Source: Candidatus Nealsonbacteria bacterium RIFCSPLOWO2_01_FULL_38_120
GTDB taxonomy: Bacteria; Patescibacteriota; Minisyncoccia; Minisyncoccales; GWA2-38-27
NCBI GenBank assembly: GCA_001821475.1
Contig: MHMF01000002.1
Span: forward strand, 1 to 33,004
DNA length: 33,004 nucleotides
Reading direction: 5' to 3'
The position numbers and the translations under genes are program-made. The notes beneath the pieces were generated by a model. It was not told the origin of the DNA. It made no database searches and was given only the letters and a program-made list of their open reading frames with translations. Positions 1-19,941 of the stretch are shown in pieces (position 1 is the stretch's first letter; every line of letters begins with the position of its first letter).

Positions 1-54
1 GAACTGGACGCAGCCGTGGATATGATGGAGGGAAAATTCCCTGTTAACCTTTGA
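1..54 (+). CDS. 3' end of an unidentified CDS entering from outside the window (reads ...ELDAAVDMMEGKFPVNL then TGA)
   Basis: Open frame from base 1 to TGA at 52-54. By eye it is more GC-rich than the next 10 kb. Too short to identify. Confidence 0.3.
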   Translation, partial: ELDAAVDMMEGKFPVNL

Positions 55-62
55 ATACTAAA

Positions 63-1553
63 TTAGAACTTAACGATCTCAAAAGATAACCGCTTATGTT
101 TTGAGGTTTTTTTATTACTGTAATCACCCTCATGTGACCATTTATCTACCTTTCGTTTCCAAACACTACCTGTTATCAATAACTTCAATTTTTTATCTTT
201 CAGATACTTTTTGAGGTACTTTGTCTTTATCATTAACAGGTGGCCATAATTAGCTAATTCAAATCTATCCTCTCCCTGCCTCCCAACATTTCGGTAATAA
301 CCATCTTGCCAATTAAGACAGTATGCTACCAATTCCCGCCCTTTATAATAATTTAATGTGTTTTTCTTTTGGGTTAATTTAAAGTGTTCTATTATCTCTG
401 GCGCGGGGAAAAGTTTTGTGCAATCATCGAAGTCCTCGGAAACAATCCCATACGAGGGAAATAATTTATCTTTCAATACATCGTGTCGATTGCCAGAATC
501 ATCCAAATATAGCCTACCATTTTGTTTTGCTTTTAATGGTAACTCATTTATATAGCAATTTCGACAACTGTAATTCGGCGTAGAAAATTCAAGCTTTCTT
601 GAAATATTAGACACTGGCGGCTTAATAAAACACGCTGTTATATGCCTATCAAACGACTTGTCTTCGTGCTTAAAACTTGAATTTTCGTATAAAGGAAACC
701 ATTCTTTTTTAGGATCAAAAAACTCATAAGTGCTCTTTTTGTTTATTTTTTGTTTAATCCAGATATTGGTTTCTGTTTTTAGTTCTGTGAAGTGCAAGAA
801 GGACGGCCTTTCTTGAACCATAAGCTGGGGCATAGAAGCGTCCCAGTTGCGCTCGTCTATTAAAAATTCTGACCAATCATCATTTCTGGCGGTTAAGTTA
901 TTAACACACCACATCAGAAACATTTGTATCCCGTGTCTGGCAAAATAATTAAGTTTCGTTTCATAACGATTGCCATCAAAATCATGTTGCCAACGTGATG
1001 GCCTCTCTTTCCAATATTGAGTTCCTTTTTTATATCCCAATGCTCTCATATAGGCAAATAATTGTTTGGTTGCTTTTTTACAATCGTATCGAAAAGTTCT
1101 ACATATACGAGACAGCTCATATTTATGATTTCTATCACCTAAGGAATACTCTAAAAAATGATCGCAATTATCGGAAAAATAATCTGCATTTTCTGACCCA
1201 TTTAACTTCGGTATAATTCTTTTAGTAATCCGATTAATGTCCAACACTTGGCCGTCAATCTTATTTAAAATATCTCTGCATAAAAGCGCTATGGAAAAAT
1301 GGTTGGTTTTTAATCCAAGTTTTGCAATTTTAGCGCTCATCGCTTTTACCTTATCCTGGTTTTCGTGGCTGATTGCAAATATAACTCTGAGACTATTCAG
1401 AACGATGTCAAAATTATTTGAATCAAGATTCAAGCCTAATTGTTTTATAGCTTCTGTATTTGACCTCTCTTTAAACAAGCACAATAAAGATTTATTGCGG
1501 TGTGCAACAATTGGCGAATTTAAATATTTAGTAATAAATTCAAGTGTATTCAT
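63..1553 (-). CDS. Hypothetical 496-aa protein with no motif I can name; translationally coupled downstream partner of the STAND NTPase
   Basis: Long uninterrupted ORF. Its ATG (1553-1551) overlaps the TGA (1552-1550) of the upstream 1585-aa gene as ATGA. No P-loop, HTH, or obvious nuclease or peptidase motif recognised. Confidence 0.75.
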   Translation of the reverse strand: MNTLEFITKYLNSPIVAHRNKSLLCLFKERSNTEAIKQLGLNLDSNNFDIVLNSLRVIFAISHENQDKVKAMSAKIAKLGLKTNHFSIALLCRDILNKIDGQVLDINRITKRIIPKLNGSENADYFSDNCDHFLEYSLGDRNHKYELSRICRTFRYDCKKATKQLFAYMRALGYKKGTQYWKERPSRWQHDFDGNRYETKLNYFARHGIQMFLMWCVNNLTARNDDWSEFLIDERNWDASMPQLMVQERPSFLHFTELKTETNIWIKQKINKKSTYEFFDPKKEWFPLYENSSFKHEDKSFDRHITACFIKPPVSNISRKLEFSTPNYSCRNCYINELPLKAKQNGRLYLDDSGNRHDVLKDKLFPSYGIVSEDFDDCTKLFPAPEIIEHFKLTQKKNTLNYYKGRELVAYCLNWQDGYYRNVGRQGEDRFELANYGHLLMIKTKYLKKYLKDKKLKLLITGSVWKRKVDKWSHEGDYSNKKTSKHKRLSFEIVKF

Positions 1554-4500
1554 TTCGATAATGATAAGCGAGTAGACTTATTTACAATCCTTTTCCAATC
1601 TTCAAAAGAATATTTTTTAATTTCGGGAATATATTTATCGATACTATCAGAAGAATAGATAAAAAGCTGAGGAAGATAATAACTACTTCCAGTTAACCTA
1701 CGGATACTTAGCAATAACGCTTTTCTCAATAAGGTTCTCTTTAGGGGAAATTCTATTTTATCCAACTCTTTTATTATCTCTGTCAAATTATACTCTCGAT
1801 CGGATGCGTCTATTTGTTCTAAAACCTCCGAGCGCGTTCTTGTTAGTATCCGTTTATTGTTTGCTTCTGCCGCCTTTTTCATTATAGAGGAGAGCAATTT
1901 GGGGCTGCTTATATTTATCTTGTTTTCCAATCCCCATTTTCTAATTTTTTGCAGATCGACATCGCTAAGAGATGATACCAGTTCCACAATTAAGCTATCT
2001 GTAAAATAACCTTTTGTTTTGGCATATTCACTTATTCTTTTTTGAAGAATATTAATGCGCCCTTTTCTGGCTAAATTTTTTAACTGTTTGATATTTAAGC
2101 CATCATAAGTAACCTTGAACTCAGAATTACTTTTCTCAACCGCTCGGTATCCTTCGCATTCTAATTGCTTCAAATATTTATTAACTTTATTGACAATATC
2201 TTTTAGCGCAGAAGTAGCCAACGCAGCAACGAAGTTTCTTAATAAGTTTATTCTATATGACGGCTCAATATCTGTTTTAAGAATATCTATATATTGACTC
2301 GCCAGCTTCTCAGCAGTTGCATAATCTTCATTTGATAAAGACCATTTTATGACGGTTAGATAAACAGCAGAAATATGTTCAAAATAATCAGAGGAATTTT
2401 CCTCCTTAATATCCATCAATCTTAGAAGCGGTAAGATTTCGGAAATTTCTCTGTATGGATAGCGTTTTACAAAAGTTGATATTATCCTTCTTAATGCTTC
2501 GTTCTGATTCACCTCGCTCTTTACTACGAATGGAAAAAAATAATCCAAAGCCAGATGATAATCTGCATAAGTGGCAGATTCCAAAAAATCAAGTTTCCGA
2601 TACCACGCACCCTCTATAACATTAGAAACACGATCGATTTGCTTTAAAATTGGTGGGAATTGCTCTTTGTCCTGCGTCCTTAAAGTATCTATAAGACTGC
2701 TTATTCTTAAGTCGCCCTTATTCCAAAGACCACGAGAATATCTTAGATTTTTATCAAATATTTCCTCTGCCATCTCTGAGAAGCCTTTATCGGCAGCAAG
2801 AACGGCCAACCTCTTTAGATTATCGCTTTTATTTAAATTATCTAGTTCTTCTTTTTGTCTCCATTCTAACGCCTTATTTAAATAACCCTCTATTTTATCT
2901 TTTAGCAAAGACGATCTAACTGACGACAAATTGATTAGACTTTCTAAAAGATCAACTCGGCTATTTAAATAATCAGCGCCTAGTATATTTTCCAATTTAT
3001 TTAATGCTAACAGAAACTTGTTCGGAAATAAGGAATCTATTATAAAAAAATTATCCCTAATTAAATCTAGGATATCTTGGCTGTAGGGATATAAATTTTT
3101 TTGTATATCAGAAGAATAAATATTAGCCGAAGACTTTATCTCGTCCACCTTTTTCTTGTAAAGCTTTAAGTGAATTTCAAAAGATTTCCAGAAATTTTTC
3201 CAATCAATCTTATCCGCACGCAAAAGCAATCTCTTTTTTGTTATATCTTGTTCTATGGACAGAACTTTTACAAATTCTGGGTTTTCTTTTTCCGAGCTAT
3301 CATTTGATTGTGGAAATTTAGTTTTAAGAGAGGCTGAGTAAAACGCCTCAATATTAAAACCCTTATCTACTAAAGATTTCAACGCTACCCATCTTAAAAA
3401 TGTCTCTCGAGGGTTTCCATTAGACCCCCAATAAGAATATCCGTGATCGTGGGACGGAATTTCTATATCAACCTTAGTCAGTAGATTTAATATTCTCTTC
3501 TTGTAATTTTTAATTTTGTAGATAAATAATGCTTCTGCTAAATCAAGACGTTGGCTTACATTCCTATCGTTGTAGAGATATTTCTCCAAATCATCATCAA
3601 CGAGTAGTTTTTTAAAATCTTGCTTATCAGAAACTTTAATTCCACTGTTTTCAAAAAGTAAATACGTCAAAAGGCGTTCTATCTTAGTGGAACGTTTCAA
3701 ATTTCGAAGCGTCTCTTTTGTGTTAATTTTAAAATTTTGAAGATGTATATCTGAAAGATAGCGACACCTCAAACCTTCAAATATTGCTTTATGTTTTTTA
3801 AAGCCAACTTCTTTCTTGAGGAATCTAATAGCGTTTTTGTATCGATTTGTATTTACTAATGCGCGGGCAAACTGTTCAATATTATTTTCTATATCGTGAC
3901 GTGCATTTTCGTCCTCTCCCCAAAGCAGTTTCCGATTTAATGAAATTCTAAATAAACTATCATCAATAAATCTTTGAGCTAAATTTATACATTTTTTATC
4001 CCTGTTTTCAAAAAGGATATTTCCAATAGCTAATCTTTTAAAAACCCATTCTCGTGTTAACCAGGGTTGATCCCCCATAGGAAGCAATAACTCCTCCTCC
4101 ACTTCCTTTAACAATTTTTCGGTAGCAATCCTAGTCTTTGTATAAATATCTTCATCGTGAACAGTTGGATAAATATCGCTAGCAGTAATTGCGTAATGAA
4201 CCAACTGCTCAATATTATTAGTTTTATAAAAATAATTTACAAAACTTTTACCAATTTCTACTTTTGTTTGGTTATCAAGATTAGACTGAAGTATTTTTTT
4301 ATAGAATTGATCCCGATGAAACTTGGCAAAAATGTTCCTAACAGATAGTTGCGATAAACCAATAGCCTCTAAATGCTTAGTTATATATTTGCGGCCATAT
4401 TCCAAATGTGTATTTTGAGAATAATATTTAGAGATTCTTTGATGATAGGCGCTTTTATCTTTTGATAATTTACTTACCACAAATCTTCTAAAACTATCGT

Positions 4501-6304
4501 GGTATGGTTCAAGTTTTCTACCGCCTCCATCTAGGAAATGCTCAATAGTTTCAATTAAATGATTAAAACTGGCTATTTTAAACTTAGATACAATTTTCCG
4601 CAAATCTTCTCTTGGCACGGGCGAAAAGTGAAAACATAGATAACCTAAGCATTCTCTTTCTTGATTATTTAAACTTTCCCAAATTGGCTTATACCAATCA
4701 AAAACTTCTTTATAGTGTAAATTTGAGCGAATTATACTGTCAACGCCATCGTGGCTATGTAGTTTTTTGCTGAGATAAAATAAAGAAATGGCCAATCCGC
4801 CAGTACCTTTTTTGATAACAGCTATTTGATCCTGAGATAAAGTTATACCTGCTTGTTTAAAATATTCCTTTATTTCCTTCTCACAAAAGTAGAGGTCTAT
4901 ACTGATTTGTTTTTTGATCTTATTAGATAAATTTTTTATTGACTGTGGTAGATATTCTTTTCCCCAGGTACTTAAAAGGAAGACTACACCAGGATAGTTA
5001 ACTAATGGTATGGCATCAAGGACAGATCGATCTTTATACCTATCTGTTTCCACTTGGTCTAGAGCATCAACAATAATAACAATCTTCTTACCTGGCCTCT
5101 GAAGTGCTTTTTCGCTTAACCTCTTTAAAGCTTCATCAAAAGTCTTATCAATGAAATCCTCATTATCTTTAATACCTACAGACATTTTAATTAATCCGAA
5201 TTCATAACATCTCTGGATAATATCTGCTTTAAACCAAGAACTCTTCAAACGATTATTATTGGAATATCCAATTCTTCCCTTACTAACTTCAAATGGACGA
5301 ATGCGACAAAAATATGGTAGAAAATCTGAATTTCTATCCGCCAACATAGAAAGTAAAACAGTTTTTCCTGAACCAGAGGGAGCAAAAAGAAAAACAAATC
5401 CTCCGTCTTTTTTCTTTGCTTCAACCGCTTTAATAATTTTACTTTCAAGATCGGGACGTTCTACATAATTTGGTGGCGCAATTATTTCCTGAAGTAAGCC
5501 TGTTTTTAATCTATCAATTAGTCCGAAAACTCGCTCTGGAAGTATTTCTATCTGGTTAGATGCAAATACCTTTGTAATCCTACCAATAAAAGCATTAATT
5601 CTGTCGTCATCAAATACTCCCTGTTCTTTCAATTTTTCTACGAGCTTCTCATGTAAAGGATCGATATCAGGAAGCTTTTGGAATTGTAAAGCAGAGATAA
5701 AACTCTTCAATTCATTTTTATTAATTAAAGGTTCTTTTTTGCAGTTCAATTCAATATTTTGAATTTCAGAAGAATATTTAGTTTGAAAATTTTGCCAAGA
5801 TAATTTTCTCTTTTTTAATTTCTGAATATCTTTTAGAAAATTATCTAAGTTGCTGGTAGGAGTTTTATTGCTTGCAACAATAAGTCGAATACATTTATTA
5901 CTTTTTTTATGCGTACGCCAGCTTTTGAGAAACTTAAATATGTTTGTTCCTTCCTTAGGATTTTTAGCGTTCGGCCTAGTAGTCCACAAATCACCAAAAC
6001 CCCATTTAGTACCAGTCTTAAGTGTATGCTTAATTTGTATTACTTCGATGCTCCCATCTTTTAAAAATCTTGTTAAATCTTCAATCCTCCTATTGGCTCC
6101 GTCTTTTCTGTCTGGTTTGATTTCTATCTTAAAAACAGACGGATTCTTTTCTACAAGACCCAAAAAACAAAGACCAGCAAATAGTTTTTCAAAATAGAAT
6201 GGAGCGTCTTCATTTTTCACTACTTTAGTCATAAAGTTATACACACTTACATTTTCGTAATATTTTCGGTATACTGTAAGTGTATCACTTAAATTAAGAA
6301 ACAT
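1550..6304 (-). CDS. Tripartite STAND (NACHT-like) P-loop NTPase with an N-terminal DUF4297/Cap4-like PD-(D/E)xK nuclease-like domain and a C-terminal helical sensor region of about 1100 aa (Avs/bNACHT-like antiphage protein)
   Basis: N-terminal block IEDLTRFLKDGSIEVIQIKH (D76, Q91-x-K93, about nt 6029-6082) resembles the D...QxK signature of DUF4297/Cap4 nucleases. Walker A is APSGSGKT at 5360-5383. Walker B is IVIIVDALDQ at 5057-5083 (NACHT-like hhhhDxxD). A long Leu/Lys/Glu-rich tail follows. The track start is TTG 6307; ATG 6304 or the internal ATG at 6232 (M26) are alternatives. Confidence 0.8.
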   Translation of the reverse strand: MFLNLSDTLTVYRKYYENVSVYNFMTKVVKNEDAPFYFEKLFAGLCFLGLVEKNPSVFKIEIKPDRKDGANRRIEDLTRFLKDGSIEVIQIKHTLKTGTKWGFGDLWTTRPNAKNPKEGTNIFKFLKSWRTHKKSNKCIRLIVASNKTPTSNLDNFLKDIQKLKKRKLSWQNFQTKYSSEIQNIELNCKKEPLINKNELKSFISALQFQKLPDIDPLHEKLVEKLKEQGVFDDDRINAFIGRITKVFASNQIEILPERVFGLIDRLKTGLLQEIIAPPNYVERPDLESKIIKAVEAKKKDGGFVFLFAPSGSGKTVLLSMLADRNSDFLPYFCRIRPFEVSKGRIGYSNNNRLKSSWFKADIIQRCYEFGLIKMSVGIKDNEDFIDKTFDEALKRLSEKALQRPGKKIVIIVDALDQVETDRYKDRSVLDAIPLVNYPGVVFLLSTWGKEYLPQSIKNLSNKIKKQISIDLYFCEKEIKEYFKQAGITLSQDQIAVIKKGTGGLAISLFYLSKKLHSHDGVDSIIRSNLHYKEVFDWYKPIWESLNNQERECLGYLCFHFSPVPREDLRKIVSKFKIASFNHLIETIEHFLDGGGRKLEPYHDSFRRFVVSKLSKDKSAYHQRISKYYSQNTHLEYGRKYITKHLEAIGLSQLSVRNIFAKFHRDQFYKKILQSNLDNQTKVEIGKSFVNYFYKTNNIEQLVHYAITASDIYPTVHDEDIYTKTRIATEKLLKEVEEELLLPMGDQPWLTREWVFKRLAIGNILFENRDKKCINLAQRFIDDSLFRISLNRKLLWGEDENARHDIENNIEQFARALVNTNRYKNAIRFLKKEVGFKKHKAIFEGLRCRYLSDIHLQNFKINTKETLRNLKRSTKIERLLTYLLFENSGIKVSDKQDFKKLLVDDDLEKYLYNDRNVSQRLDLAEALFIYKIKNYKKRILNLLTKVDIEIPSHDHGYSYWGSNGNPRETFLRWVALKSLVDKGFNIEAFYSASLKTKFPQSNDSSEKENPEFVKVLSIEQDITKKRLLLRADKIDWKNFWKSFEIHLKLYKKKVDEIKSSANIYSSDIQKNLYPYSQDILDLIRDNFFIIDSLFPNKFLLALNKLENILGADYLNSRVDLLESLINLSSVRSSLLKDKIEGYLNKALEWRQKEELDNLNKSDNLKRLAVLAADKGFSEMAEEIFDKNLRYSRGLWNKGDLRISSLIDTLRTQDKEQFPPILKQIDRVSNVIEGAWYRKLDFLESATYADYHLALDYFFPFVVKSEVNQNEALRRIISTFVKRYPYREISEILPLLRLMDIKEENSSDYFEHISAVYLTVIKWSLSNEDYATAEKLASQYIDILKTDIEPSYRINLLRNFVAALATSALKDIVNKVNKYLKQLECEGYRAVEKSNSEFKVTYDGLNIKQLKNLARKGRINILQKRISEYAKTKGYFTDSLIVELVSSLSDVDLQKIRKWGLENKINISSPKLLSSIMKKAAEANNKRILTRTRSEVLEQIDASDREYNLTEIIKELDKIEFPLKRTLLRKALLLSIRRLTGSSYYLPQLFIYSSDSIDKYIPEIKKYSFEDWKRIVNKSTRLSLSK

Positions 6305-6315
6305 CAATCAAGTTT

Positions 6316-7842
6316 ATGCCTCTTCCAATAACAAAAAGACAAAAACAGGTATTTGATTTTATAAAGGGATATATTGCCGATCGAGGCTACTCTCCCACTT
6401 TTGAAGAAATGAAGAGGGGTCTTAAACTTTCGGCTGTATCAACTGTCTACCAACATATAGATGCCCTCATTAATAAAGGCTATATTAAGAAGTTTGATAA
6501 TATGGCACGGGCTATTGAAATTAATAAAACAAAGAAAAAGAATCGAGACCTTATAGAAATCCCCCTAGTTGGAACAATCGCAGCTGGCGAACCTATAGAA
6601 GCGATAGAAGTGCCAGACAAAACCATCACCCTATCACGAGAAGAACTCCCATCATCTGGTAAACACTACGCTTTGCGGGTGAATGGCAACAGCATGGTTG
6701 ACGATGGTATATTTGACGGAGATATCGTTGTAATTCGTGAACAACAAACTGCCGACAATGGACAGACGGTAGTCGCAATTATTGATGATAATCAAGCAAC
6801 ACTCAAAAGAATCTACCGAGAAAAAAATAGATTTCGTTTACAGCCAGCCAATCAAACCCTCTTGCCTTTTTACAGAACAGAGGTCGAGATTAGGGGTGTG
6901 GTAGTAAAGATCATCAGGGAGCTTGAATCAGCGCAAGATCAGGATAGCGAATTAATTAAATTAATAAAAACGATGCCGCCGACAACTAATGTACACCGAA
7001 CAGCGACATCAGAACCTAATGAGAAAGCAAAACCTTTTATACAATGGGTTGGCGGAAAAAGAGAAATGATTCCTCAATATGAAGAATTCATTCCCAAAAA
7101 ATTTAATACCTATTACGAACCTTTTCTTGGCGGGGGGGCAATGTTCTTCTGTCTCCAACCAGAAAAAGCAGTCTTATCCGACAATAATACCGAGCTTATA
7201 AAAACATATGAGGGAGTAAGAGACAACCCAGAAGAAGTTATAAAAATACTTAAAGAATTAAAATCAAAACATTCTGGAGAACTCTATGCTAAGATTAGAA
7301 ATCTCGATCGGGAGATAAGCATTTTTCATAAACTAAACAATGCTGAAATTGCAGCAAGAATGATTTACCTTAATCAGACCTGCTTCAACGGCCTTTATAG
7401 GGTCAACCAGAAAGGCCAATTTAATGTGCCAATAGGCAGTTCGCTCAATCGCTTAATTTGTGATGAGCACACGCTTCGTAATGCGAGTAAAATATTAAAA
7501 AAAATTACAATCGAAGAAACAGATTTTGATACATCAACGAACGACGCAAAAAAAGATGACTTTATATACTTTGATCCACCCTATTATCCAGTCTCAATTT
7601 ATTCTGATTTTACCAGATATACTAAAGAAAAATTCTACAAGGAAGACCAAATAAGGTTAAAAAACGAAATTGATAGATTGAACAAAATCGGCTGTAAGAT
7701 TATGCTTTCCAACTCGGATTGTGAATTTATAAGGGATTTATATGCGGGTTATAATTTACATAGGGTTTATTCCAGTCGGTCATTAAACTGCAAAAAAGAC
7801 AAGCGAGGCAAAGTATCTGAGCTTCTTATAGTAAATTATTAA
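6316..7842 (+). CDS. Fusion protein: LexA-type repressor (wHTH plus S24 autopeptidase, aa 1 to about 205) joined by a linker to a Dam-family (D12 class, alpha) N6-adenine DNA methyltransferase (aa about 238-508)
   Basis: The N-terminus aligns by eye along E. coli LexA. PLVGTIAAGEPIEA matches the Ala-Gly cleavage site (A90-G91 at 6583-6588). NGNSM carries the catalytic Ser126 (6691-6693). ATLKR carries the catalytic Lys164 (6805-6807). The C-terminal half has Dam motifs QWVGGKR, EPFLGGGAMFF, NQTCFNGLYRVN..FNVP and DPPY (7573-7584). There is no stop codon between the halves. Confidence 0.85.
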   Translation: MPLPITKRQKQVFDFIKGYIADRGYSPTFEEMKRGLKLSAVSTVYQHIDALINKGYIKKFDNMARAIEINKTKKKNRDLIEIPLVGTIAAGEPIEAIEVPDKTITLSREELPSSGKHYALRVNGNSMVDDGIFDGDIVVIREQQTADNGQTVVAIIDDNQATLKRIYREKNRFRLQPANQTLLPFYRTEVEIRGVVVKIIRELESAQDQDSELIKLIKTMPPTTNVHRTATSEPNEKAKPFIQWVGGKREMIPQYEEFIPKKFNTYYEPFLGGGAMFFCLQPEKAVLSDNNTELIKTYEGVRDNPEEVIKILKELKSKHSGELYAKIRNLDREISIFHKLNNAEIAARMIYLNQTCFNGLYRVNQKGQFNVPIGSSLNRLICDEHTLRNASKILKKITIEETDFDTSTNDAKKDDFIYFDPPYYPVSIYSDFTRYTKEKFYKEDQIRLKNEIDRLNKIGCKIMLSNSDCEFIRDLYAGYNLHRVYSSRSLNCKKDKRGKVSELLIVNY

Positions 7843-7843
7843 T

Positions 7844-8902
7844 ATGAGATTTATTGGTAACAAAGAAAAATTATTAGAGCGAATTCATCAGGCCGTATTA
7901 TCTACCAGTGTCAAAGATGGCGTATTTTGCGATTTTTTCTCTGGCACTTCAAATGTCGGCCGCTTTTTCAAAGAAAAGGGGTTCAAAATTATTTCATCTG
8001 ATCTTCTTTATTTTTCATATGTACTTCAAAAAGCTTATATATCAAATAATACCGAACCAAAATTTACAAAGCTTCTTAAGAATATTAAAACGCCTAAAAA
8101 CAATCTCTTCTCTTCTCCATTTGAATCTATCAAAAATTATCTCAATAACTTAAAAGGAGTTAATGGTTTTATTTATAAAAATTACACTGAAGAAGGAACG
8201 AAAAATCAGCAGTATAAGCGAAAATACTTTATTGCAGAAAATGCAAAAAGAATCGATGCTATACGCATTAAAATAGAAGAATGGAAAGAGAAAAATCTGA
8301 TAAATGAAAACGAGTACTTTATTTTATTAGCATCTCTAATAGAAAGTGCTCCTTTCTACGCAAACATATCGGGAGTATATGCCGCATTCCTTAAGCAATA
8401 TGATCCAAGAGCGCTTAAGCGTTTTGAGATGAAATCAATAAAATTTTATTCTGGGAAAAAATCTCATGCAGTTTATAACAAGGATAGCATGGATCTTCTC
8501 AATAATCTTGATGCAGATATCCTTTATATCGACCCTCCATACAACAATAGACAATATGCACCAAATTATCATCTGTTGGAAACTATTGCTAAATATGACA
8601 ACCCCCCAATAAAAGGCGCTACTGGCCTGCGAGATTATAAAAATCAGAAATCAGATTTCTGCAACAAAGAAACTGCGCTAACTGCGCTTGATAAGATAGC
8701 AAAAACGGCTAAGTATAGATATCTAATCCTTAGCTATAATTCCGAGGGCATAATGCCAGAGAAAGATATAATGTCCGTACTAAAAAAATATGGAGAAGTC
8801 ACTCTTCAAAATATCAATTACCCAAGATTTAAGAGCAATAATAACGGAGATTCAAGGCACAAGAAAACAATCCAAGAGCAACTATATATTTTAAGAAGTT
8901 AA
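7844..8902 (+). CDS. Second D12-class (alpha) N6-adenine DNA methyltransferase
   Basis: MRFIGNKEKLL start, FxGxG-type motif DFFSGTSNVG, and DPPY at 8531-8542 (ILYIDPPYNNRQY). It starts 1 nt after the stop of the LexA-Dam ORF. From memory it resembles the N-terminal half of M.FokI; this is unverified. Confidence 0.85.
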   Translation: MRFIGNKEKLLERIHQAVLSTSVKDGVFCDFFSGTSNVGRFFKEKGFKIISSDLLYFSYVLQKAYISNNTEPKFTKLLKNIKTPKNNLFSSPFESIKNYLNNLKGVNGFIYKNYTEEGTKNQQYKRKYFIAENAKRIDAIRIKIEEWKEKNLINENEYFILLASLIESAPFYANISGVYAAFLKQYDPRALKRFEMKSIKFYSGKKSHAVYNKDSMDLLNNLDADILYIDPPYNNRQYAPNYHLLETIAKYDNPPIKGATGLRDYKNQKSDFCNKETALTALDKIAKTAKYRYLILSYNSEGIMPEKDIMSVLKKYGEVTLQNINYPRFKSNNNGDSRHKKTIQEQLYILRS

Positions 8903-10276
8903 AAGATTATTTACTACTTCCTTAAAAATTTCTGGCGGTTGTTTGCCTAAAACTATTTCTCCATTTTCGTTCAATAAGAACCCAATTTGTTTTTCGGCGA
9001 TAGATTTTTCCTTGCTACCGAAAACTACAACTGTCCTTAAGATTGAATCGGGATTGTGCGATGGTTTGATAATTTTCTTCTCAATATATGAGAAGTTTTT
9101 TAATTCGCTGATACCTGATTTACGAGTAGCGTATCTTTTGCCCTCAACGTTTATTATCTGATTTCTTTCAGGATCATAAATAATCATATCTGGGAGATAT
9201 ATAATCATCGTTTTGTCTCCAGATTTATATATTGCTCTTTTGCCTTCCTGGTATTTTCCGATTGCCATTGCTCCTAATGTTTTATGCATAAAATAACCTC
9301 GCTCTGAGCCACCATGATTTGCATAAATTACTTCTGCCTTAGTATATGCTAAAAGCGTAACATGCAAAAAGATTGTAGCCATTTTCTCTTGCGAAGCTTC
9401 GTAGTGCCAATAACTCTCGTGACTAATCGTAACTGGCAGCCTTAAGCCCTCCAGCTTAATATCCAAGTGGTTAGCAATCTGAATAAATTTATTGTCCCTG
9501 CCCAAGTTTTCTTGTTTTAAACCGTGATGAGTAATAATAATATCTTTATCCTTTTCCCATTTTCTAATACATGCAGCGATAATAGTGAGAGCGCCTATGT
9601 TAGGATCATGTCCGATGCCTCCAGATTTATATAACCTCCCAGAAACTTCTATACGATTAGAAAGAATCTTAATCTGAATTGGTACATTACCCGCTGGTGG
9701 TTTTCTCATCGAATTTTTAGCCGAAACTAATTCGGCAAGATTAGAAAATGGCTTCATTACCGCCTCATCATAAACCTTACCCATAATTTCAACCCCGATA
9801 GTCTTTAACATTCTTGTACCGAATATATTTGTTTCTGTTGGTTTTTCCTTTTGAGAAATCTGAAGATTATAAAGCATAATCTTCTTAACGTTCGGATAAT
9901 AAAAATCAATGTAAACGAATTTACTGCATCGTTGATATACTCCCGTATTTCGAGATTCCGAATCGTCAGTCTTGGTTTCCTCAATCGCATATAAAGGTTT
10001 TGAACTCTGATCTGGTTCTTTCTCCTGGTAAAAAACAAGAAAGTCGACAAAGCTGGAATTGCCACTGGCAATTTTGATAAACACATTATCAAAGTCTTTG
10101 GAAACAACACCCTCGGTTTTATAAGTAAACAGAAAATGACCCCCTTTAATAATGGGGACTATGCGTAATTTGTTAATCTTTATCTGAAGATTAAAATCAG
10201 CAGCCATCTTTTCTAAGATAACTTGGATTACGCCACCTTTCGGCATTTCTTCTGTGAGAATCCAAACATTCTTCAT
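8891..10276 (-). CDS. Putative restriction endonuclease (461 aa) with a C-terminal PD-ExK motif
   Basis: It is convergent with the second methyltransferase and overlaps it by 12 nt. The C-terminal motif YLPDMIIYDPERNQIINVEGKRY fits PD...ExK. No other family recognised. The call rests mainly on context. Confidence 0.6.
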   Translation of the reverse strand: MKNVWILTEEMPKGGVIQVILEKMAADFNLQIKINKLRIVPIIKGGHFLFTYKTEGVVSKDFDNVFIKIASGNSSFVDFLVFYQEKEPDQSSKPLYAIEETKTDDSESRNTGVYQRCSKFVYIDFYYPNVKKIMLYNLQISQKEKPTETNIFGTRMLKTIGVEIMGKVYDEAVMKPFSNLAELVSAKNSMRKPPAGNVPIQIKILSNRIEVSGRLYKSGGIGHDPNIGALTIIAACIRKWEKDKDIIITHHGLKQENLGRDNKFIQIANHLDIKLEGLRLPVTISHESYWHYEASQEKMATIFLHVTLLAYTKAEVIYANHGGSERGYFMHKTLGAMAIGKYQEGKRAIYKSGDKTMIIYLPDMIIYDPERNQIINVEGKRYATRKSGISELKNFSYIEKKIIKPSHNPDSILRTVVVFGSKEKSIAEKQIGFLLNENGEIVLGKQPPEIFKEVVNNLLTS

Positions 10277-10380
10277 GAATTCAAAATATCACGAAATAAT
10301 AAATTTTACTACCCCAAGATGCTAAGATTTTGTAAATTCCTGTCAGATTTTGTCAGAAAAGTTGTCCACAGAAATTAGCC

Positions 10381-10408
10381 TTGACCTTCGCCCATATCCT
10401 GGTAAAAT
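10381..10408 (+). promoter_or_regulatory. Sigma70-like promoter: TTGACC, 16-nt spacer, extended -10 TGgTAAAAT
   Basis: TTGACC at 10381-10386. TG at 10400-10401. TAAAAT at 10403-10408. It is preceded by two TGTCAGA direct repeats at 10341 and 10351. Confidence 0.45.
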
Positions 10409-10414
10409 CAAAGT

Positions 10415-10552
10415 GTAGACAGAAGCGGAAAGGATCACCGCTAAAAGCCCAAAAAATTATAGAAGACTTAGTGAGCAAGTAGGGCTATAACTTCTGTTCT
10501 CAATCAGCAAGATTAGAAATTGATTGAGGACGAGAAGTTGTAGCCCTTTTTT
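10415..10552 (+). ncRNA. Candidate small RNA or 5' leader of about 135 nt ending in a long terminator-like hairpin
   Basis: It lies between the predicted promoter and the T-run. It has a small hairpin AGCGG...CCGCT, then a 65-nt hairpin. No ORF is present on this strand. Confidence 0.3.
10482..10552 (+). terminator. Long imperfect hairpin followed by TTTTTT (intrinsic terminator or attenuator)
   Basis: Left arm GGGCTATAACTTCTGTTCTCAATCA (10482-10506) pairs with right arm TGATTGAGGACGAGAAGTTGTAGCCC (10521-10546). The loop is 14 nt. The T-run is at 10547-10552. Confidence 0.5.
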
Positions 10553-10657
10553 GTTTGTAAATTATTAAATTCCCTTCTGAGGCTAAGTGCCTGGATGGCA
10601 AGACATTTTTCTATAAGAACAAGATAAAGGCTGGCTCCCAGCAGGGGCAAGCCTTTT

Positions 10658-10858
10658 ATGTTGCCCCCAAAAGCCATACAAGAATTCAAAGAATTATACA
10701 AAAAGCGCTACGGCGTGGAGCTTTCCGATGCCGAAGCTTCTTTTCGTGCCAATAACCTTTTCAAGCTCTACAAGATCGTCTACATGGGTGAACCTTCTGT
10801 GGAAGGTCTCGAAATAAAACCAACGAAAAATTATGTCCCAAAACCAAACAATAATTAG
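10658..10858 (+). CDS. Small hypothetical protein (66 aa), first gene of the element's compact plus-strand module
   Basis: The ORF overlaps the next gene by 26 nt, giving phage-like packing. No domain recognised. Confidence 0.5.
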   Translation: MLPPKAIQEFKELYKKRYGVELSDAEASFRANNLFKLYKIVYMGEPSVEGLEIKPTKNYVPKPNNN

Positions 10859-11144
10859 CGAAATTCAATTCTACCCCGTTAAGCCCAAAGATGGTCTTTT
10901 AGGATTTGTTTCATTTGTCGTGGACGACAAGTTTTGGATGGGATCAATAGCGGTATTCACTCGGCTGGAAGGCGGCTATCGTCTGGTTTATCCCACCCGC
11001 AAGGTCGGCAGTCAGAATATAAATATTTTTCACCCGATTAATCGTGACGCAAGTCTACAGGTCGAATCTGCCGTGATCAAAAAAGTAGAACAAATATTTA
11101 ATGAAGATTATAAATCAACCGAACCAACAGAAAAAATGTGGTAA
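10833..11144 (+). CDS. SpoVG-like nucleic-acid-binding protein
   Basis: IQFYPVKPKDGLLGFVSFVVDDKFWMGSIAVF...FHPINRDASLQVESAVIKKV parallels SpoVG. In SpoVG the N-terminal strand is followed by AHPIN and a helix. Confidence 0.7.
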   Translation: MSQNQTIISEIQFYPVKPKDGLLGFVSFVVDDKFWMGSIAVFTRLEGGYRLVYPTRKVGSQNINIFHPINRDASLQVESAVIKKVEQIFNEDYKSTEPTEKMW

Positions 11145-11520
11145 GCACGCAAACTTCTTCCCAGCACCACATAGAGTTTTTGATGATGAAGAACTCCGCA
11201 TTCAGCTGAGCCACGCAGACAGGGATTTTTATATAGCACTTTGCCACTTAGCTAATCGACACGCTAATGAAAATGGATGGTTTCGACACATCGACGGCGA
11301 ATTCAAAACTCTGAAGGGAAAACGAAAAGGATTTGTTTCTTATGGGTTCGGCTCAACAACCTGCAAAAGAGCCAGGAAAAAACTTATAGCTCTTGGCCTA
11401 ATTGAAACAAAAGAAAATCCAGAAAAACGAGGTAAAACAGGTGGCACTATGTATCGAATTTGTATAGAGAGTTGGAATAACCCTATAGACCAAAATGGTC
11501 TTAAGAACAGACCACCATGA
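11101..11520 (+). CDS. Putative winged-helix DNA-binding protein (replication-initiator or regulator-like)
   Basis: The ORF overlaps the upstream gene by 44 nt. The segment FYIALCHLANR...STTCKRARKKLIALGLIE looks like a wHTH. The call is weak. Confidence 0.5.
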   Translation: MKIINQPNQQKKCGKHANFFPAPHRVFDDEELRIQLSHADRDFYIALCHLANRHANENGWFRHIDGEFKTLKGKRKGFVSYGFGSTTCKRARKKLIALGLIETKENPEKRGKTGGTMYRICIESWNNPIDQNGLKNRPP

Positions 11521-11658
11521 GCCATAGCATAAGACCGCAAAGGTCTCCATATTAAAAAAGAAGTATTAAGAAATTAATTAATAAAGCATAAGTAATGCAC
11601 ACAAGCGTGCTAAAAAAATAAATAAATTGTGAATCAAATAAATTCCACAACTTCAAAG

Positions 11659-12237
11659 ATGCCAAAAGAAACCGAACAGCAATACACGGCATGGCTTTTG
11701 TATTGCGAAGCGGGCAGCCTGGTAAAGACATTAATCCTATGGGGTAATGTTGGGCAAAGTGTGGGTGAAATGGGGGTGGAATTTGCCGAACGGCTTGGCA
11801 AAAAACCGAGCGATACGACACTGGAAAGATGGTCGAAAAAATATCACTGGGTTGAAAGGCGTGAGATTAAATTAACGGAAGACTTAGAAGCTCTACGGCA
11901 AAAGACCAAAAAGATAAAGCGAGAAAAACTTCACAAGATCGCTGAGATCTTCGACAAGATCACTAATAAAGTCCTTAAAAGACTTCGGGGAGATGAGGAG
12001 CCTTCCATTTCAGAATGGAAAATGGTCTGGGAGATGTTCCAGATTGAGCTTGGAAAACCGACCAGTAGGGGTGAATTAAAAACAGAATCAGAACAAAGAC
12101 TGCCAACGTCCGAAGAAAGGGAGCATGGGAAAAGACTTCATAAAGCTGTGGAATGGTATTTGGACAATGAACTGGACGATGAAGACAAATGGCAAGAATT
12201 TCAAGAGCTCATTGAGAAAAACAAAAAAACAAGGTAA
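11659..12237 (+). CDS. Hypothetical HTH-like protein, possibly terminase-small-subunit-like or a regulator
   Basis: ATG at 11659; the track starts at GTG 11629. The N-terminal segment QQYTAWLLYCEAGS...TTLERWSKKYHWVERRE resembles phage HTH modules. The C-terminus is charged and coiled. Confidence 0.5.
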   Translation: MPKETEQQYTAWLLYCEAGSLVKTLILWGNVGQSVGEMGVEFAERLGKKPSDTTLERWSKKYHWVERREIKLTEDLEALRQKTKKIKREKLHKIAEIFDKITNKVLKRLRGDEEPSISEWKMVWEMFQIELGKPTSRGELKTESEQRLPTSEEREHGKRLHKAVEWYLDNELDDEDKWQEFQELIEKNKKTR

Positions 12238-12245
12238 AATATAAT

Positions 12246-12388
12246 TGCGTCCTACAAGTTTGAATTAAGGCACAGGGTAATTGCTTCTTTGAAGCCCAAT
12301 TGCGGGCTGAAAGGGGCAGCTATCCTCCACAATTGGTTGCCTTGTGCAATTCAATCTTGTGGGACGCAGGCTCTGGCTGTCCCTTTTT
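12246..12388 (+). promoter_or_regulatory. Structured intergenic RNA element: a long closing helix of about 28 bp and inner helices, overlapping an intrinsic terminator (attenuator or riboswitch-like layout)
   Basis: Arm 12246-12276 (TGCGTCCTACAAGTTTGAATTAAGGCACAGG) pairs with arm 12340-12368 (CCTTGTGCAATTCAATCTTGTGGGACGCA). An inner CCAATTG/CAATTGG helix is present. The terminator GGGAC(12361-12365)...GTCCC(12379-12383) is followed by TTTTT (12384-12388). It shares the GGGAC segment with the long helix. Confidence 0.4.
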
Positions 12389-12482
12389 GTTTTCCTTGAC
12401 TTGCTAAAGCCTTTGACCCATGTTGTGTGTTGAGGGGAGAAATCCCAAAAAATCGAATAAAAAATTAATTAATGAACCAAAT

Positions 12483-13367
12483 ATGACAAATAAAGCCAAA
12501 ATTAGCGCCGTAATCGCCATTGTAGCGGTCTTTGGGGCGAGTTATGGAGTTTATCACCTTATAATCAAAGCACCGCAAAATAAAGGCAATGTTGATGTAA
12601 CTTCAATAAAGACATTCGAGCAATGTTCCGAAGCAAGCTTCCCTATAATCAGGCACTATCCAGATCAGTGCCAAACGCCAGACGGCAGAATCTTCATTAA
12701 TGAAAATCCTCCGAGTGAGGCCGAGCTCGCCAAAGCCGAACAAGCGATCAAAACATTCATGGGAGACCCGAACTTGGAGCTGGAATACATAACGCAAAAT
12801 AGGCATCCCGCAAACTTCGGTATCTATAAACCTGCCGATCCGAACGATCCATCAAATACTGACAAGCAAACAGCAATCCGCTATGACTTTACAGAAGAAT
12901 GGGATCGCCCAGTTTACATCTTCCAGCAAACAGAATACATCAACAACCGATGCGAAGTTTATCAATATCAAGTAACCATAAAAACTAACCAGGTCGTGGA
13001 GATAGGTATGGTCTATCCCGAAGGGCTTCAGGCAGAAGCTTCAATCTCTGGAGAGTGCGGTAATGGATCGCTGGAATGGCCACTTAAAACTAAAGAAGAA
13101 ATCGAGCAAGCAGCCTTCGCATATCTGGGCAGAGACTCAGAACACACGGGCTTTCTGGCAAGATCAGATATTCAGCTCGAATACATCTCAAGCAAACCAG
13201 GCGCAGAAAACCCATCTCATAATGAATGGCGCTGGGAAGATAAAAGCTACAAACTGCCAAAAGGGCTTATTGCTGATCCGTTCCCTTATCCAACAATGAG
13301 AATAATAATGTCGAGTGGTAGAAAGCTGGTTTATTATCTCAACACCACCGATTTATTTAATAACTAA
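12483..13367 (+). CDS. Membrane-anchored or secreted hypothetical protein carried by the element
   Basis: ATG at 12483 gives MTNKAKISAVIAIVAVFGASYGVYHLI, an N-terminal TM or signal anchor. The remainder is hydrophilic with scattered Cys. No family recognised. Confidence 0.65.
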   Translation: MTNKAKISAVIAIVAVFGASYGVYHLIIKAPQNKGNVDVTSIKTFEQCSEASFPIIRHYPDQCQTPDGRIFINENPPSEAELAKAEQAIKTFMGDPNLELEYITQNRHPANFGIYKPADPNDPSNTDKQTAIRYDFTEEWDRPVYIFQQTEYINNRCEVYQYQVTIKTNQVVEIGMVYPEGLQAEASISGECGNGSLEWPLKTKEEIEQAAFAYLGRDSEHTGFLARSDIQLEYISSKPGAENPSHNEWRWEDKSYKLPKGLIADPFPYPTMRIIMSSGRKLVYYLNTTDLFNN

Positions 13368-13368
13368 T

Positions 13369-14973
13369 ATGAGCCAAGAGGACTTATTGAAAATTAAATA
13401 CTTCCTCTACGCCAGAAAATCATCTGAACAAGAAGATCGACAAGTGCTTTCAATCGATTCGCAGAAAAGCGAACTGGAATCAGTTGCTAAAAAAGAAGAA
13501 CTGAATATCGTCGGCCGATTTGAAGAATCATATTCAGCGAAAGACCCAGGCCGAAAAATCTTCAATGAAATAATCGGACGAATTGAAAAAGGTGAAGCCA
13601 ATGCTATTCTCGCCTGGCATCCGAATCGCCTCTCAAGAAATTCAGTAGATACGGGGTATTTGATTTATCTGATGGATCAAAACAAACTTCTCGAAATCCG
13701 AACGCCAGGACAAACATTCAAAAATACTCCGAATGACAAATTTCTTCTTAATCTTCTCTGCAGCCAAGCAAAACTTGAAAACGATAATAAAGGTATAGAC
13801 GTAAAGCGTGGCCTAAGACGCAAAGTAGAACTGGGCTGGCATCCAGGCCCAGCGCCGATCGGCTACTTAAACACTCCAGATAAAGAAAAGGGATTCAAAA
13901 CAATTCGCAAAGACCCGAAAATGTTTCCGATGATCCGCAAAATGTTTGATCTGGTCTTAAGCGGAGATTTTACTGCTCCCCGTGTCCATGAAATTGCAGT
14001 TGAGAAATGGGGCTTAAAGAAATTAGCCCGAAGCGGTTTTTACCGCACGTTGTATAATCCTTTCTATTACGGCTGGTTTGAATGGCCGAGAGGCAGCGGT
14101 AATTGGCGTAAGGGCAAACACGAGCCAATGATTACCAGAGAAGAATTCGATCGCATTCAAGAATTAATGCATCCTGGTCAGAAACCAAAGCCTGAAAAAC
14201 ACACCTTCGCTTATACGGGCATGATCCGCTGCGGTGAATGCGGTTGCATGATTACAGCCGAGAATAAGGTCAAAAGAAATAAACAAGGCGGTGAGCATTA
14301 TTATACTTATTATCGCTGTACCAAGCGTCGTGGGCGATGTAGCCAGAAATACATTGAGGTAAAAGAACTTGAAAAACAAATTACAAAAACGCTGGCTGGC
14401 ATAGAAGTACCGCCGGAATTCCATAATTGGGCTATGACTTGGCTTCGGACTGAAAATACCAGAGAATCTAACGACAGGAATACCATCTTAAATAATTTAC
14501 AGAAAAATTATGAAACCTGCGTCAGAAAACTGGACACACTAATCGACATGCGAGCTTCGGGAGAAATAACCGAAGATGAATTTAATAAAAAGAAAACAGC
14601 CGTAGGCCAAGAAAAGGCACGACTTCAAGAACTTTTGAATGATACTGATAAACGCATAGACAGCTGGCTCGAAACCGCAGACAGGGTTATCAAATTCGCT
14701 TCGGATGCCAGAGAAGCTTTCACTGAGCGAGGCCAGTTAGCGAGAAAGATTATTCTTTCCGCCTTAGGTTCGAACCTACTCTTAAAAGGCAAAAAACTCG
14801 AAATTGACGTACAAAATGCGCTTATGCCAATGATGCTCGTCTCATCTGGGGCAAAAATAAAAACTGGTACGTTCGAACCAGTCAAAACAGGCACAAATAA
14901 AGAGAAAAGCGGAGCTTTTGGCTCTGCTCATCCCATATGGCTCCGCGGGCAGGACTCGAACCTGCAACCTTGA
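13369..14973 (+). CDS. Large serine recombinase (integrase)
   Basis: Resolvase catalytic N-terminus YARKSSEQEDRQVLSIDSQ. Recombinase domain present. Zinc ribbon CGECGC...YYRCTKRRGRC. A coiled-coil C-terminus follows. The probable start is ATG 13369; the track gives 13315. The last 12 codons are antisense to tRNA-Asn. Confidence 0.9.
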   Translation: MSQEDLLKIKYFLYARKSSEQEDRQVLSIDSQKSELESVAKKEELNIVGRFEESYSAKDPGRKIFNEIIGRIEKGEANAILAWHPNRLSRNSVDTGYLIYLMDQNKLLEIRTPGQTFKNTPNDKFLLNLLCSQAKLENDNKGIDVKRGLRRKVELGWHPGPAPIGYLNTPDKEKGFKTIRKDPKMFPMIRKMFDLVLSGDFTAPRVHEIAVEKWGLKKLARSGFYRTLYNPFYYGWFEWPRGSGNWRKGKHEPMITREEFDRIQELMHPGQKPKPEKHTFAYTGMIRCGECGCMITAENKVKRNKQGGEHYYTYYRCTKRRGRCSQKYIEVKELEKQITKTLAGIEVPPEFHNWAMTWLRTENTRESNDRNTILNNLQKNYETCVRKLDTLIDMRASGEITEDEFNKKKTAVGQEKARLQELLNDTDKRIDSWLETADRVIKFASDAREAFTERGQLARKIILSALGSNLLLKGKKLEIDVQNALMPMMLVSSGAKIKTGTFEPVKTGTNKEKSGAFGSAHPIWLRGQDSNLQP

Positions 14974-18963: not shown

Positions 18964-19941
18964 TTAAATTAAATCTAACAAAGTTGGCGCTCCTAATAGT
19001 TGCTCATCGTCTGCTAGAATATTACCTTCTTTCAAAATTTTGGTTCTGCCCCAGCCTATTTCTCCAGTCCGCCTATAATGTAATAAACGAGCAACCATTA
19101 TTTTGCAATAAGCGGGGTTTATATCCATCGTATAACATTTTCTCTTACTTAACTCCGCCTGCAACAATGTAGAGCCAGAGTGCCCAAAAAAATCAACAAC
19201 AAGGTCTCTTTGGTTGCTGCTCGCCTCAATAATCCTCTTGGCGGATTTAAGCGGTTTTTGAGCAAAACAGCCCTCTATATTTTCGTGCATTAAATAAAAA
19301 ACCTGTTGTATATCGTGCCAAACATTTCCCGCCCGAATAGTTAAAGATTTGCTCCGCTCAAAATTTTCTGTTATCTTCCCATTTATTTTTTTGTAATATC
19401 CTTTAGTTTTTTTAGGTATATCTGTATATTCGGCCCGAACATCAAAAATTGGCTCACCCTTAATGTAGTAAAGTAATTCTTGTCGAATTGCCATCCAGTT
19501 TTTTTGCGTCCCATATCCTCGTTGATTCCTCATTGTTATGAAATTCCTGATGCTTACGGGCTTATTTCTCATCATAATTATAAAATCGGGAAGTGGCTGC
19601 AAGCCGTCTCTAATATCCGCCCCAAGCCAGACATAAAAAGAGGAATTTTTATCAAGAATATCTATTGTATTATCAACCCATTTTTCACTCCAACCAATAT
19701 ATTGATTAAGCGGCAGATTTCCAAATTCATCATTTATATCAACATTATATGGCGGGTCTTGGATGGCAAGAATCGCTTTTTCATCCCGCATCAATTTTTT
19801 AACATCTTCCTTTTTTGAAACATCAAGACAGCCAACCCTATGACCGCTAATCGGGTCTTCCCAAATAAAACCGTACTCAAAATCAGGAATTTTAACTATT
19901 GTCTTATTATTTATTTTTTTTCTGTCTTGGACTATCGGCAT
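18964..19941 (-). CDS. Beta-class N6-adenine (N4/N6 family) DNA methyltransferase
   Basis: DPPY at 19747-19758 (AIQDPPYNV) precedes the C-terminal SAM motif DFFGHSGSTLLQAE. This circularly permuted order is typical of beta-class enzymes. Confidence 0.85.
   Translation of the reverse strand: MPIVQDRKKINNKTIVKIPDFEYGFIWEDPISGHRVGCLDVSKKEDVKKLMRDEKAILAIQDPPYNVDINDEFGNLPLNQYIGWSEKWVDNTIDILDKNSSFYVWLGADIRDGLQPLPDFIIMMRNKPVSIRNFITMRNQRGYGTQKNWMAIRQELLYYIKGEPIFDVRAEYTDIPKKTKGYYKKINGKITENFERSKSLTIRAGNVWHDIQQVFYLMHENIEGCFAQKPLKSAKRIIEASSNQRDLVVDFFGHSGSTLLQAELSKRKCYTMDINPAYCKIMVARLLHYRRTGEIGWGRTKILKEGNILADDEQLLGAPTLLDLI

Follow-up and report, generated by a model that had tools for sequence, protein, structure and literature searches.

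The window analyzed here is a stretch of 33,004 nt (positions 1 to 33,004 of contig MHMF01000002.1) from Candidatus Nealsonbacteria bacterium RIFCSPLOWO2_01_FULL_38_120, a member of the Patescibacteria or candidate phyla radiation (CPR). It contains a gene, lexA-M1, that joins a LexA-type repressor in frame to a DNA adenine methyltransferase (MTase). It is followed by the gene for a second MTase (M2) and, on the opposite strand, by the gene for a putative restriction endonuclease (R), the three forming a predicted Type II restriction-modification (R-M) cassette (Table 1). The initial annotation described lexA-M1 as one uninterrupted reading frame of 508 aa, with a LexA-like N-terminal part that includes a winged helix-turn-helix (wHTH), a cleavage site at A90-G91, and the catalytic Ser and Lys, and with a Dam-like enzyme carrying a DPPY motif behind it. 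The open reading frame (ORF) and its translation, which has zero internal stops, together with Pfam, NCBIfam, and structure alignments, bear out these elements and their coordinates. A linker between the halves had also been predicted and is present, but it measures about 15 aa rather than the proposed 30 or so.

Table 1. Features of the lexA-M1 locus and its surroundings in the window
Feature	Position	Strand	Basis or remark
lexA-M1 fusion gene	6316..7842	+	508 aa + stop
LexA winged-HTH DNA-binding domain, aa 4-66	6325..6513	+	Pfam LexA_DNA_bind PF01726, 2.4e-16
Peptidase_S24 domain, aa 83-197	6562..6906	+	Pfam PF00717, 1.8e-28
Ala90-Gly91 autocleavage site (predicted)	6583..6588	+	Aligns with E. 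coli LexA Ala-Gly site
Catalytic Ser126 and Lys164	6691-6693 and 6805-6807	+	Within S24 domain
Short variable linker, aa 205-219	6928..6972	+	Variable alignment columns
DpnM-like D12-class N6-adenine DNA MTase, aa 220-508	6973..7839	+	PF02086 and TIGR00571
MTase motifs FxGxG and DPPY	7123-7137 and 7573-7584	+	
Predicted sigma-70-type promoter of lexA-M1/M2 operon	6246..6275	+	Consensus scan, 9/12 match
Putative LexA box of the Patescibacteria type: TTTCgtaatatTTTC, a direct repeat with an 11-bp period	6253..6267	+	Between -35 and -10
DnaA-box-like motif TTATACACA	6237..6245	+	Just upstream of -35
M2, second D12-class Type II MTase	7844..8902	+	PF02086, 8e-36; PADLOC MTase_II, 1e-98
R, Type II restriction endonuclease, 461 aa	8891..10276	-	PADLOC REase_II PDLC03445, 3.2e-51
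Probable extended -10 (TGaTATTTT) of R	10283..10291	-	6 nt before ATG; read by eye, inferred
Divergent STAND (NACHT-like + TPR) gene	1550..6232	-	PF24883 NPHP3_N

In NCBIfam, the N-terminal 203 aa score 190.1 bits against the lexA equivalog TIGR00498 (cutoff, 110.95), and the C-terminal half scores 267 bits against the dam model TIGR00571 (cutoff, 115); Pfam places MethyltransfD12 (PF02086) at aa 244 to 487 (8e-57). The protein is therefore not a stand-alone, two-domain LexA of ~200 aa. The LexA half matches solved LexA structures (Thermotoga maritima 3k2z, E = 3e-32; Escherichia coli, E of ~1e-25), and this alignment identifies Ala90-Gly91, Ser126, and Lys164 as the canonical LexA residues: PLVGTIAAGEP corresponds to PLVGRVAAGEP around the E. 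coli Ala-Gly site, NGNSM to SGMSM around the catalytic Ser, and ATLKR to VTVKR around the catalytic Lys. The MTase half is nearest to DpnM (2dpm; E = 1.8e-73) and falls below the cutoff of the E. coli Dam equivalog NF008152 (134 versus 441). Avoidance of GATC was dropped as a clue to its specificity, since the observed/expected ratio of this site (0.70 in the window, 0.85 pooled) is mid-range among palindromes and hence uninformative. Residues 220 to 238 (MPPTTNVHR...) form the conserved N terminus of the MTase clade and are also found in LexA-less homologues. An AlphaFold2 (AF2) model built with 47 homologues (predicted local distance difference test [pLDDT] score, 81) consists of three folded modules with flexible hinges between them. 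Helices 7 to 23, 29 to 36, and 41 to 53 plus a wing make up the wHTH; the hinge at 72 to 77 has low confidence, and the linker has a short helix (212 to 218), after which the chain is extended (~219 to 247).

A search for the same architecture in other genomes, as suggested by the initial annotation, returned at least 56 protein clusters (90% nonredundant) of ~500 aa with the same three domains and 56 to 91% identity. Sources label these proteins "LexA" in some cases and "DNA adenine methylase" in others; public databases thus contain the architecture without any comment on it. One might argue that the fusion is an assembly, frameshift, or gene-calling artifact that conceals separate lexA and dam genes, and one GenBank record (L001, a near-syntenic contig) does annotate a 289-aa MTase only. 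However, the L001 DNA carries the same intact 508-aa ORF, the shorter gene call beginning at the internal Met220, and at 40 fusion loci from independent assemblies (GTDB genomes and Joint Genome Institute metagenomes) both halves lie in one frame with 0 stops between them. Nor does the linker look like a spurious junction: dN/dS values against five relatives of the window fusion were 0.07 to 0.15 for the wHTH, 0.06 to 0.07 for S24, 0.03 to 0.13 for the linker, and 0.03 to 0.11 for the MTase, so that all segments, the linker included, are under purifying selection. The artifact explanation, to which we would in any case assign next to no probability, is already refuted. In a 47-sequence alignment, A90, G91, S126, K164, F270xGG, and D420PPY are invariant down to 57% identity.

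All named hosts of the fusion, which is widespread in this group, belong to the Patescibacteria/CPR (Nomura-, Buchanan-, Taylor-, and Komeilibacteria, Paceibacterota, and "Saccharibacteria"); among the GTDB species representatives, only some 12 carry it. Some public labels, at L001 (LQBG01000056.1), L018, and L004, look unreliable: a contig binned as 'Firmicutes bacterium ML8_F2' and a 3-kb contig binned as 'Gammaproteobacteria' contain this CPR cassette, and the L001 record lists the fusion as a hypothetical protein of 289 aa. A phage origin was rejected, as no copy of the fusion was found in IMG/VR.

The partner genes are conserved. The ATG of M2 lies 1 nt past the M1 stop, and M2 is never missing from a fusion locus long enough to include it; R is convergent with M2, with a 12-bp 3' overlap. 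Analysis by tblastn recovered M1-M2-R synteny at every locus extending far enough, LexA-less versions included. Together with the domain matches in Table 1, this indicates that the partner genes make up a genuine Type II R-M system. R has two PD-(D/E)xK-like motifs with invariant residues (D78..E100xK102 and PD363..E378xK380) and a confident AF2 model (pLDDT, 91.6). A fold search with R gave no significant PDB neighbor, only weak hints of MUS81, McrC, and T7 endonuclease I, and a sequence search against PDB gave no match. Its family comprises more than 2,400 homologues, all 'hypothetical' and without a Pfam domain, including proteins from Capnocytophaga and Thermoflexibacter. Just upstream of the R start codon, homologous loci have, at the corresponding position, an element resembling TGnGATAAT. 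The mRNA of R is probably leaderless, since the extended -10 is only 6 nt from the ATG.

The same M1-M2-R cassette also exists with an M1 that lacks LexA and is either unfused (~290 to 315 aa) or fused to an Xre-type HTH_26 domain (~368 aa). A LexA-less cassette with M1, M2, and R 57, 45, and 52% identical, respectively, was found in a DPANN archaeon (Pacearchaeota L017; also L023, L028, and other DPANN loci), which points to cross-domain transfer among ultra-small cells. At L124 and L125, a C-protein-like ORF of the Xre type, in the 150 nt upstream of R, ends directly before R although M1 carries LexA, giving two different controllers within one R-M cassette.

The predicted promoter of lexA-M1 combines a -35 element (CTTACA/TTACAT), an 18-nt spacer, and the -10 element TATACT (6270-6275), and the candidate operator lies within it. 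When all dyads of two 4-mers separated by 0 to 12 nt were scored in 24 nonredundant 100-nt upstream regions, the top dyad was TTTC-N7-TTTC, present in 19 of the 24 fusion promoters, compared with 1.7% of segments drawn at random from these loci (binomial P = 9e-30). The consensus of this direct repeat is AcTTTCgATtTATTTTCgATAt, with an 11-bp period; in some loci, the repeat has the opposite orientation and lies between the -10 element and the ATG. The fusion loci, 469 kb in all, contain 46 strict sites, 33 of which lie in the fusion's own promoter. PMC7739468, citing Sanchez-Osuna, Barbe & Erill (2017), likewise gives a direct repeat as the LexA motif of Patescibacteria. A palindromic LexA box was considered as well, but the candidate in the window, a long inverted repeat (ATACACTTACA/TGTAAGTGTAT), was rejected because it is not conserved even in the 91%-identical L001.

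The repeat goes with the LexA domain. It is found in 0 of 12 promoters of LexA-less M1 genes (Fisher P = 5e-6), and M1 genes fused to HTH_26 have in its place a conserved palindrome, TATATCAAC-N4-GTTGATATA, about 100 nt upstream of M1, that overlaps the -10 element (L139, L143, L146, L147, L152, and L155) and is a putative C-box-like operator of this fusion class. The type of predicted operator therefore changes with the fused DNA-binding domain. The initial annotation proposed M1 as the controller of the R-M operon. This view is supported for M1-M2, which have a predicted operator in their own promoter, but not for R: TTTC-N7-TTTC precedes R in only 1 of 18 R promoters and is absent in the window, and a LexA box before R was accordingly rejected. 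Given that R has its own promoter without this operator, control would act on M1-M2 and not directly on R.

A second recurrent element is the DnaA-box-like motif just upstream of -35, where TTATNCACA is exact in 5 of the 24 fusion promoters versus 1% of the background, and is present with at most one mismatch in 16 of 24 versus 14%. The motif (TTATNCACA or TGTGGATAA, in either orientation) also occurs at L007, L012, L111, L133, L191, L196, L198, and L202 and recurs in CPR lexA and lexA-MTase promoters. It may represent a second regulatory input, from DnaA or replication status, or may be part of the promoter of the divergent gene.

Comparison with ordinary lexA genes places the fusion among them. 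Its LexA half is 55 to 68% identical to Patescibacteria LexA proteins of ~200 aa, and the same TTTC direct repeat precedes stand-alone lexA genes at L191, L193, L195, L200, L202, and L203. The promoters of the L001 fusion and of stand-alone lexA at L203, whose product is 67% identical to the window LexA half, agree in 38 of 39 positions, and fusion P0022 has a LexA half with 94% identity to P0136, a stand-alone LexA (L202). A neighbor-joining tree, itself poorly resolved, did not support a monophyletic origin of the fused LexA halves. Since promoter and SOS box are shared with stand-alone CPR lexA, the fusion is a bona fide lexA gene with an MTase appended. All of this sequence evidence indicates that the LexA half is not an invention specific to R-M and that it has its operator and promoter in common with ordinary lexA genes of Patescibacteria.

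Likewise, the association of LexA with an MTase extends beyond the D12 class. Among the best 120 matches to the LexA half, 27 come with an MTase domain (PF01555, 14; PF00145, 9; PF02086, 3; PF02384, 1), so that the fusion is not unique: four MTase families occur either fused to LexA or in operons that begin with lexA. The fusions of close LexA homologues to N4/N6 (PF01555), C5 (PF00145), and N6_Mtase (PF02384) enzymes are among proteins P0124 to P0237. At L191 (3001-5981), lexA is followed by an N4/N6 MTase gene and then by one for a HinfI-type endonuclease; at L193 (3001-5492), lexA overlaps the gene for an Eco57I/MmeI-type enzyme, with CBASS (SMODS/SLATT) and GmrSD adjoining; and L196 (4001-5468) encodes a LexA-N4/N6 fusion with a GTTCGGTAAATGTTCGGTATAAT box. 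The stand-alone lexA of L203 adjoins a Shedu (SduA_C) gene.

We lean toward the view that the locus is a Type II R-M cassette in which M1 carries a full LexA, autorepresses M1-M2, and would be relieved of this repression by self-cleavage in the SOS response. The fusion protein would dimerize via its S24 domain, and the dimer would bind the Patescibacteria SOS box (TTTC-N7-TTTC) between the -35 and -10 elements of its own promoter. M1-M2 would thus be repressed as with the MTases of the SsoII/EcoRII type, for which autorepression through an N-terminal HTH has been described (PMC3874152). Upon DNA damage, RecA filaments on single-stranded DNA would stimulate self-cleavage at Ala90-Gly91, severing the wHTH from the S24-MTase body and derepressing the promoter. 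MTase output would go up while R keeps its LexA-independent promoter, and the M:R ratio would shift to protection while repair and recombination create unmodified DNA. Such a response would be the Type II counterpart of restriction alleviation, which is known for Type I systems (PMC4231737 and PMC11109961). In this scheme, DNA binding, cleavage that depends on RecA, the sign of the physiological outcome, and the persistence of the MTase after cleavage are inferred.

Several points weigh against this proposal. The exact repeat is missing from 5 of the 24 promoters (L011 and L121 carry one-mismatch versions), and the most divergent fusion, L141, whose LexA half is 52% identical, has an inverted repeat, ACAAAAT...ATTTTGT, without the TTTC repeat and may have switched its operator. 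No recA gene is found in the 33-kb window. E. coli rapidly degrades the two fragments of its cleaved LexA; if the S24-MTase fragment were similarly unstable, damage would lower methylation, not raise it. The operator is the generic SOS box, and a separate host LexA, if any, could be the real regulator, with the fused wHTH redundant. Finally, no coupling of R to the switch is apparent, which leaves the timing of establishment unexplained.

How far the regulon of the fusion reaches is a related question. Possibly, though we give this less credence, the fusion is the cell's own and perhaps only SOS master regulator, a selfish R-M cassette having welded its MTase onto the resident lexA. The cassette would thereby gain an SOS-regulated promoter and become hard to lose, and the fusion would also repress the rest of a small SOS regulon. 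This would fit the score of the LexA half above the lexA equivalog cutoff, the promoter, operator, and DnaA-box-like element held in common with stand-alone lexA genes, and the close kinship of P0136 and P0022 among LexA halves that do not group together. The cassette has, moreover, diverged like the adjacent housekeeping genes, and there is no second lexA in the 33-kb window or within 8 kb on either side of any fusion. That search covered these loci, however, and a second lexA may lie elsewhere in the genomes; almost no strict boxes occur beyond the fusion promoters in the about 470 kb examined, and lexA is widespread in CPR whereas the fusion is confined to the few species representatives mentioned above. 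This explanation is compatible with cis-regulation as proposed here and differs from it only in regulon scope. Its extreme form, in which the fusion is the cell's only LexA, strikes us as doubtful. If it were true, the master regulator of the damage response would physically be an R-M MTase, and the close LexA homologues linked to four MTase families by fusion or operon would point to a lineage-wide rewiring in which SOS, R-M, and adjacent defense genes (such as STAND/Avs2) make up one circuit. What becomes of the S24-MTase fragment would then decide whether damage leads to restriction alleviation or to suicide.

The suicide outcome deserves attention in its own right, although we consider it unlikely. 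In this scenario, cleavage exposes degrons, the S24-MTase fragment is degraded, methylation capacity collapses, and the constitutively expressed endonuclease attacks new DNA; the R-M cassette would then be an SOS- or phage-triggered abortive-infection or toxin-antitoxin-like device. An independent promoter of R without a LexA box would suit such a device, and so would the rapid proteolysis of LexA fragments in E. coli and the location of these cassettes among abortive-infection and defense genes (STAND, Avs2, AbiU2, CBASS, and Shedu). R-M systems do behave like toxin-antitoxin pairs with M as the antitoxin (PMC3874152). Yet methylation lasts until replication, so killing would be slow, and damaged cells stop replicating; derepression would at the same time raise the synthesis of new fusion protein, the unfused M2 would persist, and no degron is identifiable from sequence. 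At the other end, the LexA moiety might be a noncleaving tether or dimerization module that serves DNA targeting and autoregulation without any damage response. That HTH_26-fused and unfused M1 homologues pair with the same M2 and R suggests that the N-terminal domain is exchangeable and that simple autorepression suffices. However, the Ala-Gly site, Ser126, and Lys164 are invariant over the whole alignment, the dN/dS of S24 is ~0.06, and known noncleaving LexA-like proteins have lost these residues. Because of the invariant catalytic residues, we regard a purely structural role as very improbable, and autorepression relieved by self-cleavage is the reading that we retain.

The initial annotation also linked the fusion to the divergent STAND operon. 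This link does not generalize: STAND is present only in the three closest loci (L001, L003, and L004), upstream neighbors elsewhere are mixed (serine recombinase, AbiU2, Avs2 at L002, surface proteins, and others), and STAND was therefore rejected as a conserved partner. Locally, corepression of STAND by the shared box is possible. The window is 99% identical to L003 over positions 1 to 6000 but only 72 to 85% identical from ~6276 rightwards, housekeeping genes included. This identity profile indicates that it was the STAND block that changed hands recently, with a crossover in the lexA promoter, and a swap of the R-M cassette between strains was rejected on the same grounds. Over positions 1-6275, the block with STAND and orf496 is 99% nucleotide identical to three assemblies (L001, L003, and L004), against 72 to 85% for the R-M cassette and housekeeping genes at 6276-12400, which points to a recent horizontal exchange. 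At L002/L005 of Buchananbacteria, the gene divergent from the fusion encodes an Avs2 STAND protein (4000-7902, minus strand; PADLOC E = 4e-193), a second STAND NTPase, unrelated to the first, with a LexA box in the intergenic region between its gene and a lexA-MTase gene. Elsewhere in the window, a large serine recombinase (Resolvase, Recombinase, and Zn ribbon) is encoded at 13315-14973 on the plus strand, 3 kb to the right of the cassette, and a further N4/N6 DNA MTase at 18964-19941 on the minus strand, past rpoD/dnaG. The segment 12393-13335 shows no alignment to relatives.

We found no description of a LexA-MTase fusion in the literature searched, which did not include the 2017 paper on the Patescibacteria SOS network; the initial annotation was likewise aware of none. 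R-M timing is achieved by C-proteins, HTH-bearing MTases, or promoter methylation, and to our knowledge none of these devices responds to a cellular signal. Should our proposal hold, the modification arm would respond directly whenever DNA damage, repair, recombination, or phage attack activates RecA, and Type II systems would gain a built-in counterpart of Type I restriction alleviation. Recurrence with four unrelated MTase families, in fusions and in operons with lexA first, argues for a selected strategy, which would concern the tiny-genome, largely episymbiotic Patescibacteria. The analysis also lends comparative support to the LexA box of Patescibacteria and reveals that lexA genes in CPR are often located inside defense islands. 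Judging from architecture and promoter, DNA damage probably controls this defense system directly.

With canonical LexA, as represented by E. coli and T. maritima (3k2z), the fusion shares the wHTH, the Ala-Gly site, the Ser/Lys dyad, and a score above the equivalog cutoff, and, by computation, a LexA box in its own promoter that is a direct repeat as at stand-alone CPR lexA. It differs in the 289-aa MTase at its C terminus, in that cleavage would free an S24-MTase instead of S24 alone, and in heading an R-M operon. Phage CI-type repressors, UmuD, and SOS-controlled toxin-antitoxin modules (symE and tisB) likewise couple a switch to RecA through S24 self-cleavage or carry LexA boxes on toxin-antitoxin-like modules. 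Here, in contrast, the cleavable repressor is built covalently into the antitoxin-like R-M enzyme and is cellular, with none found in IMG/VR.

Among R-M systems, those of the C-protein Type II class also encode a transcription factor within the cassette that sets the expression balance, and the sister cassettes come close to them, with an Xre-type HTH and palindromic boxes or with the C-like ORF before R in L124/L125. C-proteins, however, are small separate gene products encoded upstream of R with a C-box. In the window, there is no C-protein-type ORF upstream of R, which has an extended -10 only, and the controller is fused to M, would act on M1-M2, and is potentially signal responsive through RecA-stimulated cleavage. 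The DpnII system (DpnM/DpnA/DpnB) resembles the cassette in its two MTases and one endonuclease and in the FxGxG and DPPY motifs of M1, whose nearest relative is DpnM. In contrast, M2 is a second D12 enzyme and not a DpnA-type N4/N6 MTase, the genes are convergent, and R is unrelated, with 461 aa and two PD-(D/E)xK-like motifs.

The SsoII, EcoRII, Ecl18kI, and ScrFI MTases (PMC3874152) have an N-terminal DNA-binding domain and an operator overlapping their own core promoter, as does M1 by prediction, a layout through which an MTase would sense and limit its own level. Yet their HTH is ~70 aa, short, and Xre-like and sits on a C5 MTase, whereas M1 has ~205 aa of LexA, with wHTH, S24 autopeptidase, and cleavage site, on a D12 enzyme of the m6A type. 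Their R gene is divergent and co-controlled, while here it is convergent with its own promoter. Unlike theirs, the predicted operator is a direct repeat with the same sequence pattern as the SOS box of the host, and the repressor could in principle be inactivated by DNA damage. The SsoII/EcoRII-type autorepressing MTase is the closest known kind, from which the fusion differs in its whole, apparently self-cleaving LexA, in the host SOS box as operator, and in MTase class and gene layout.

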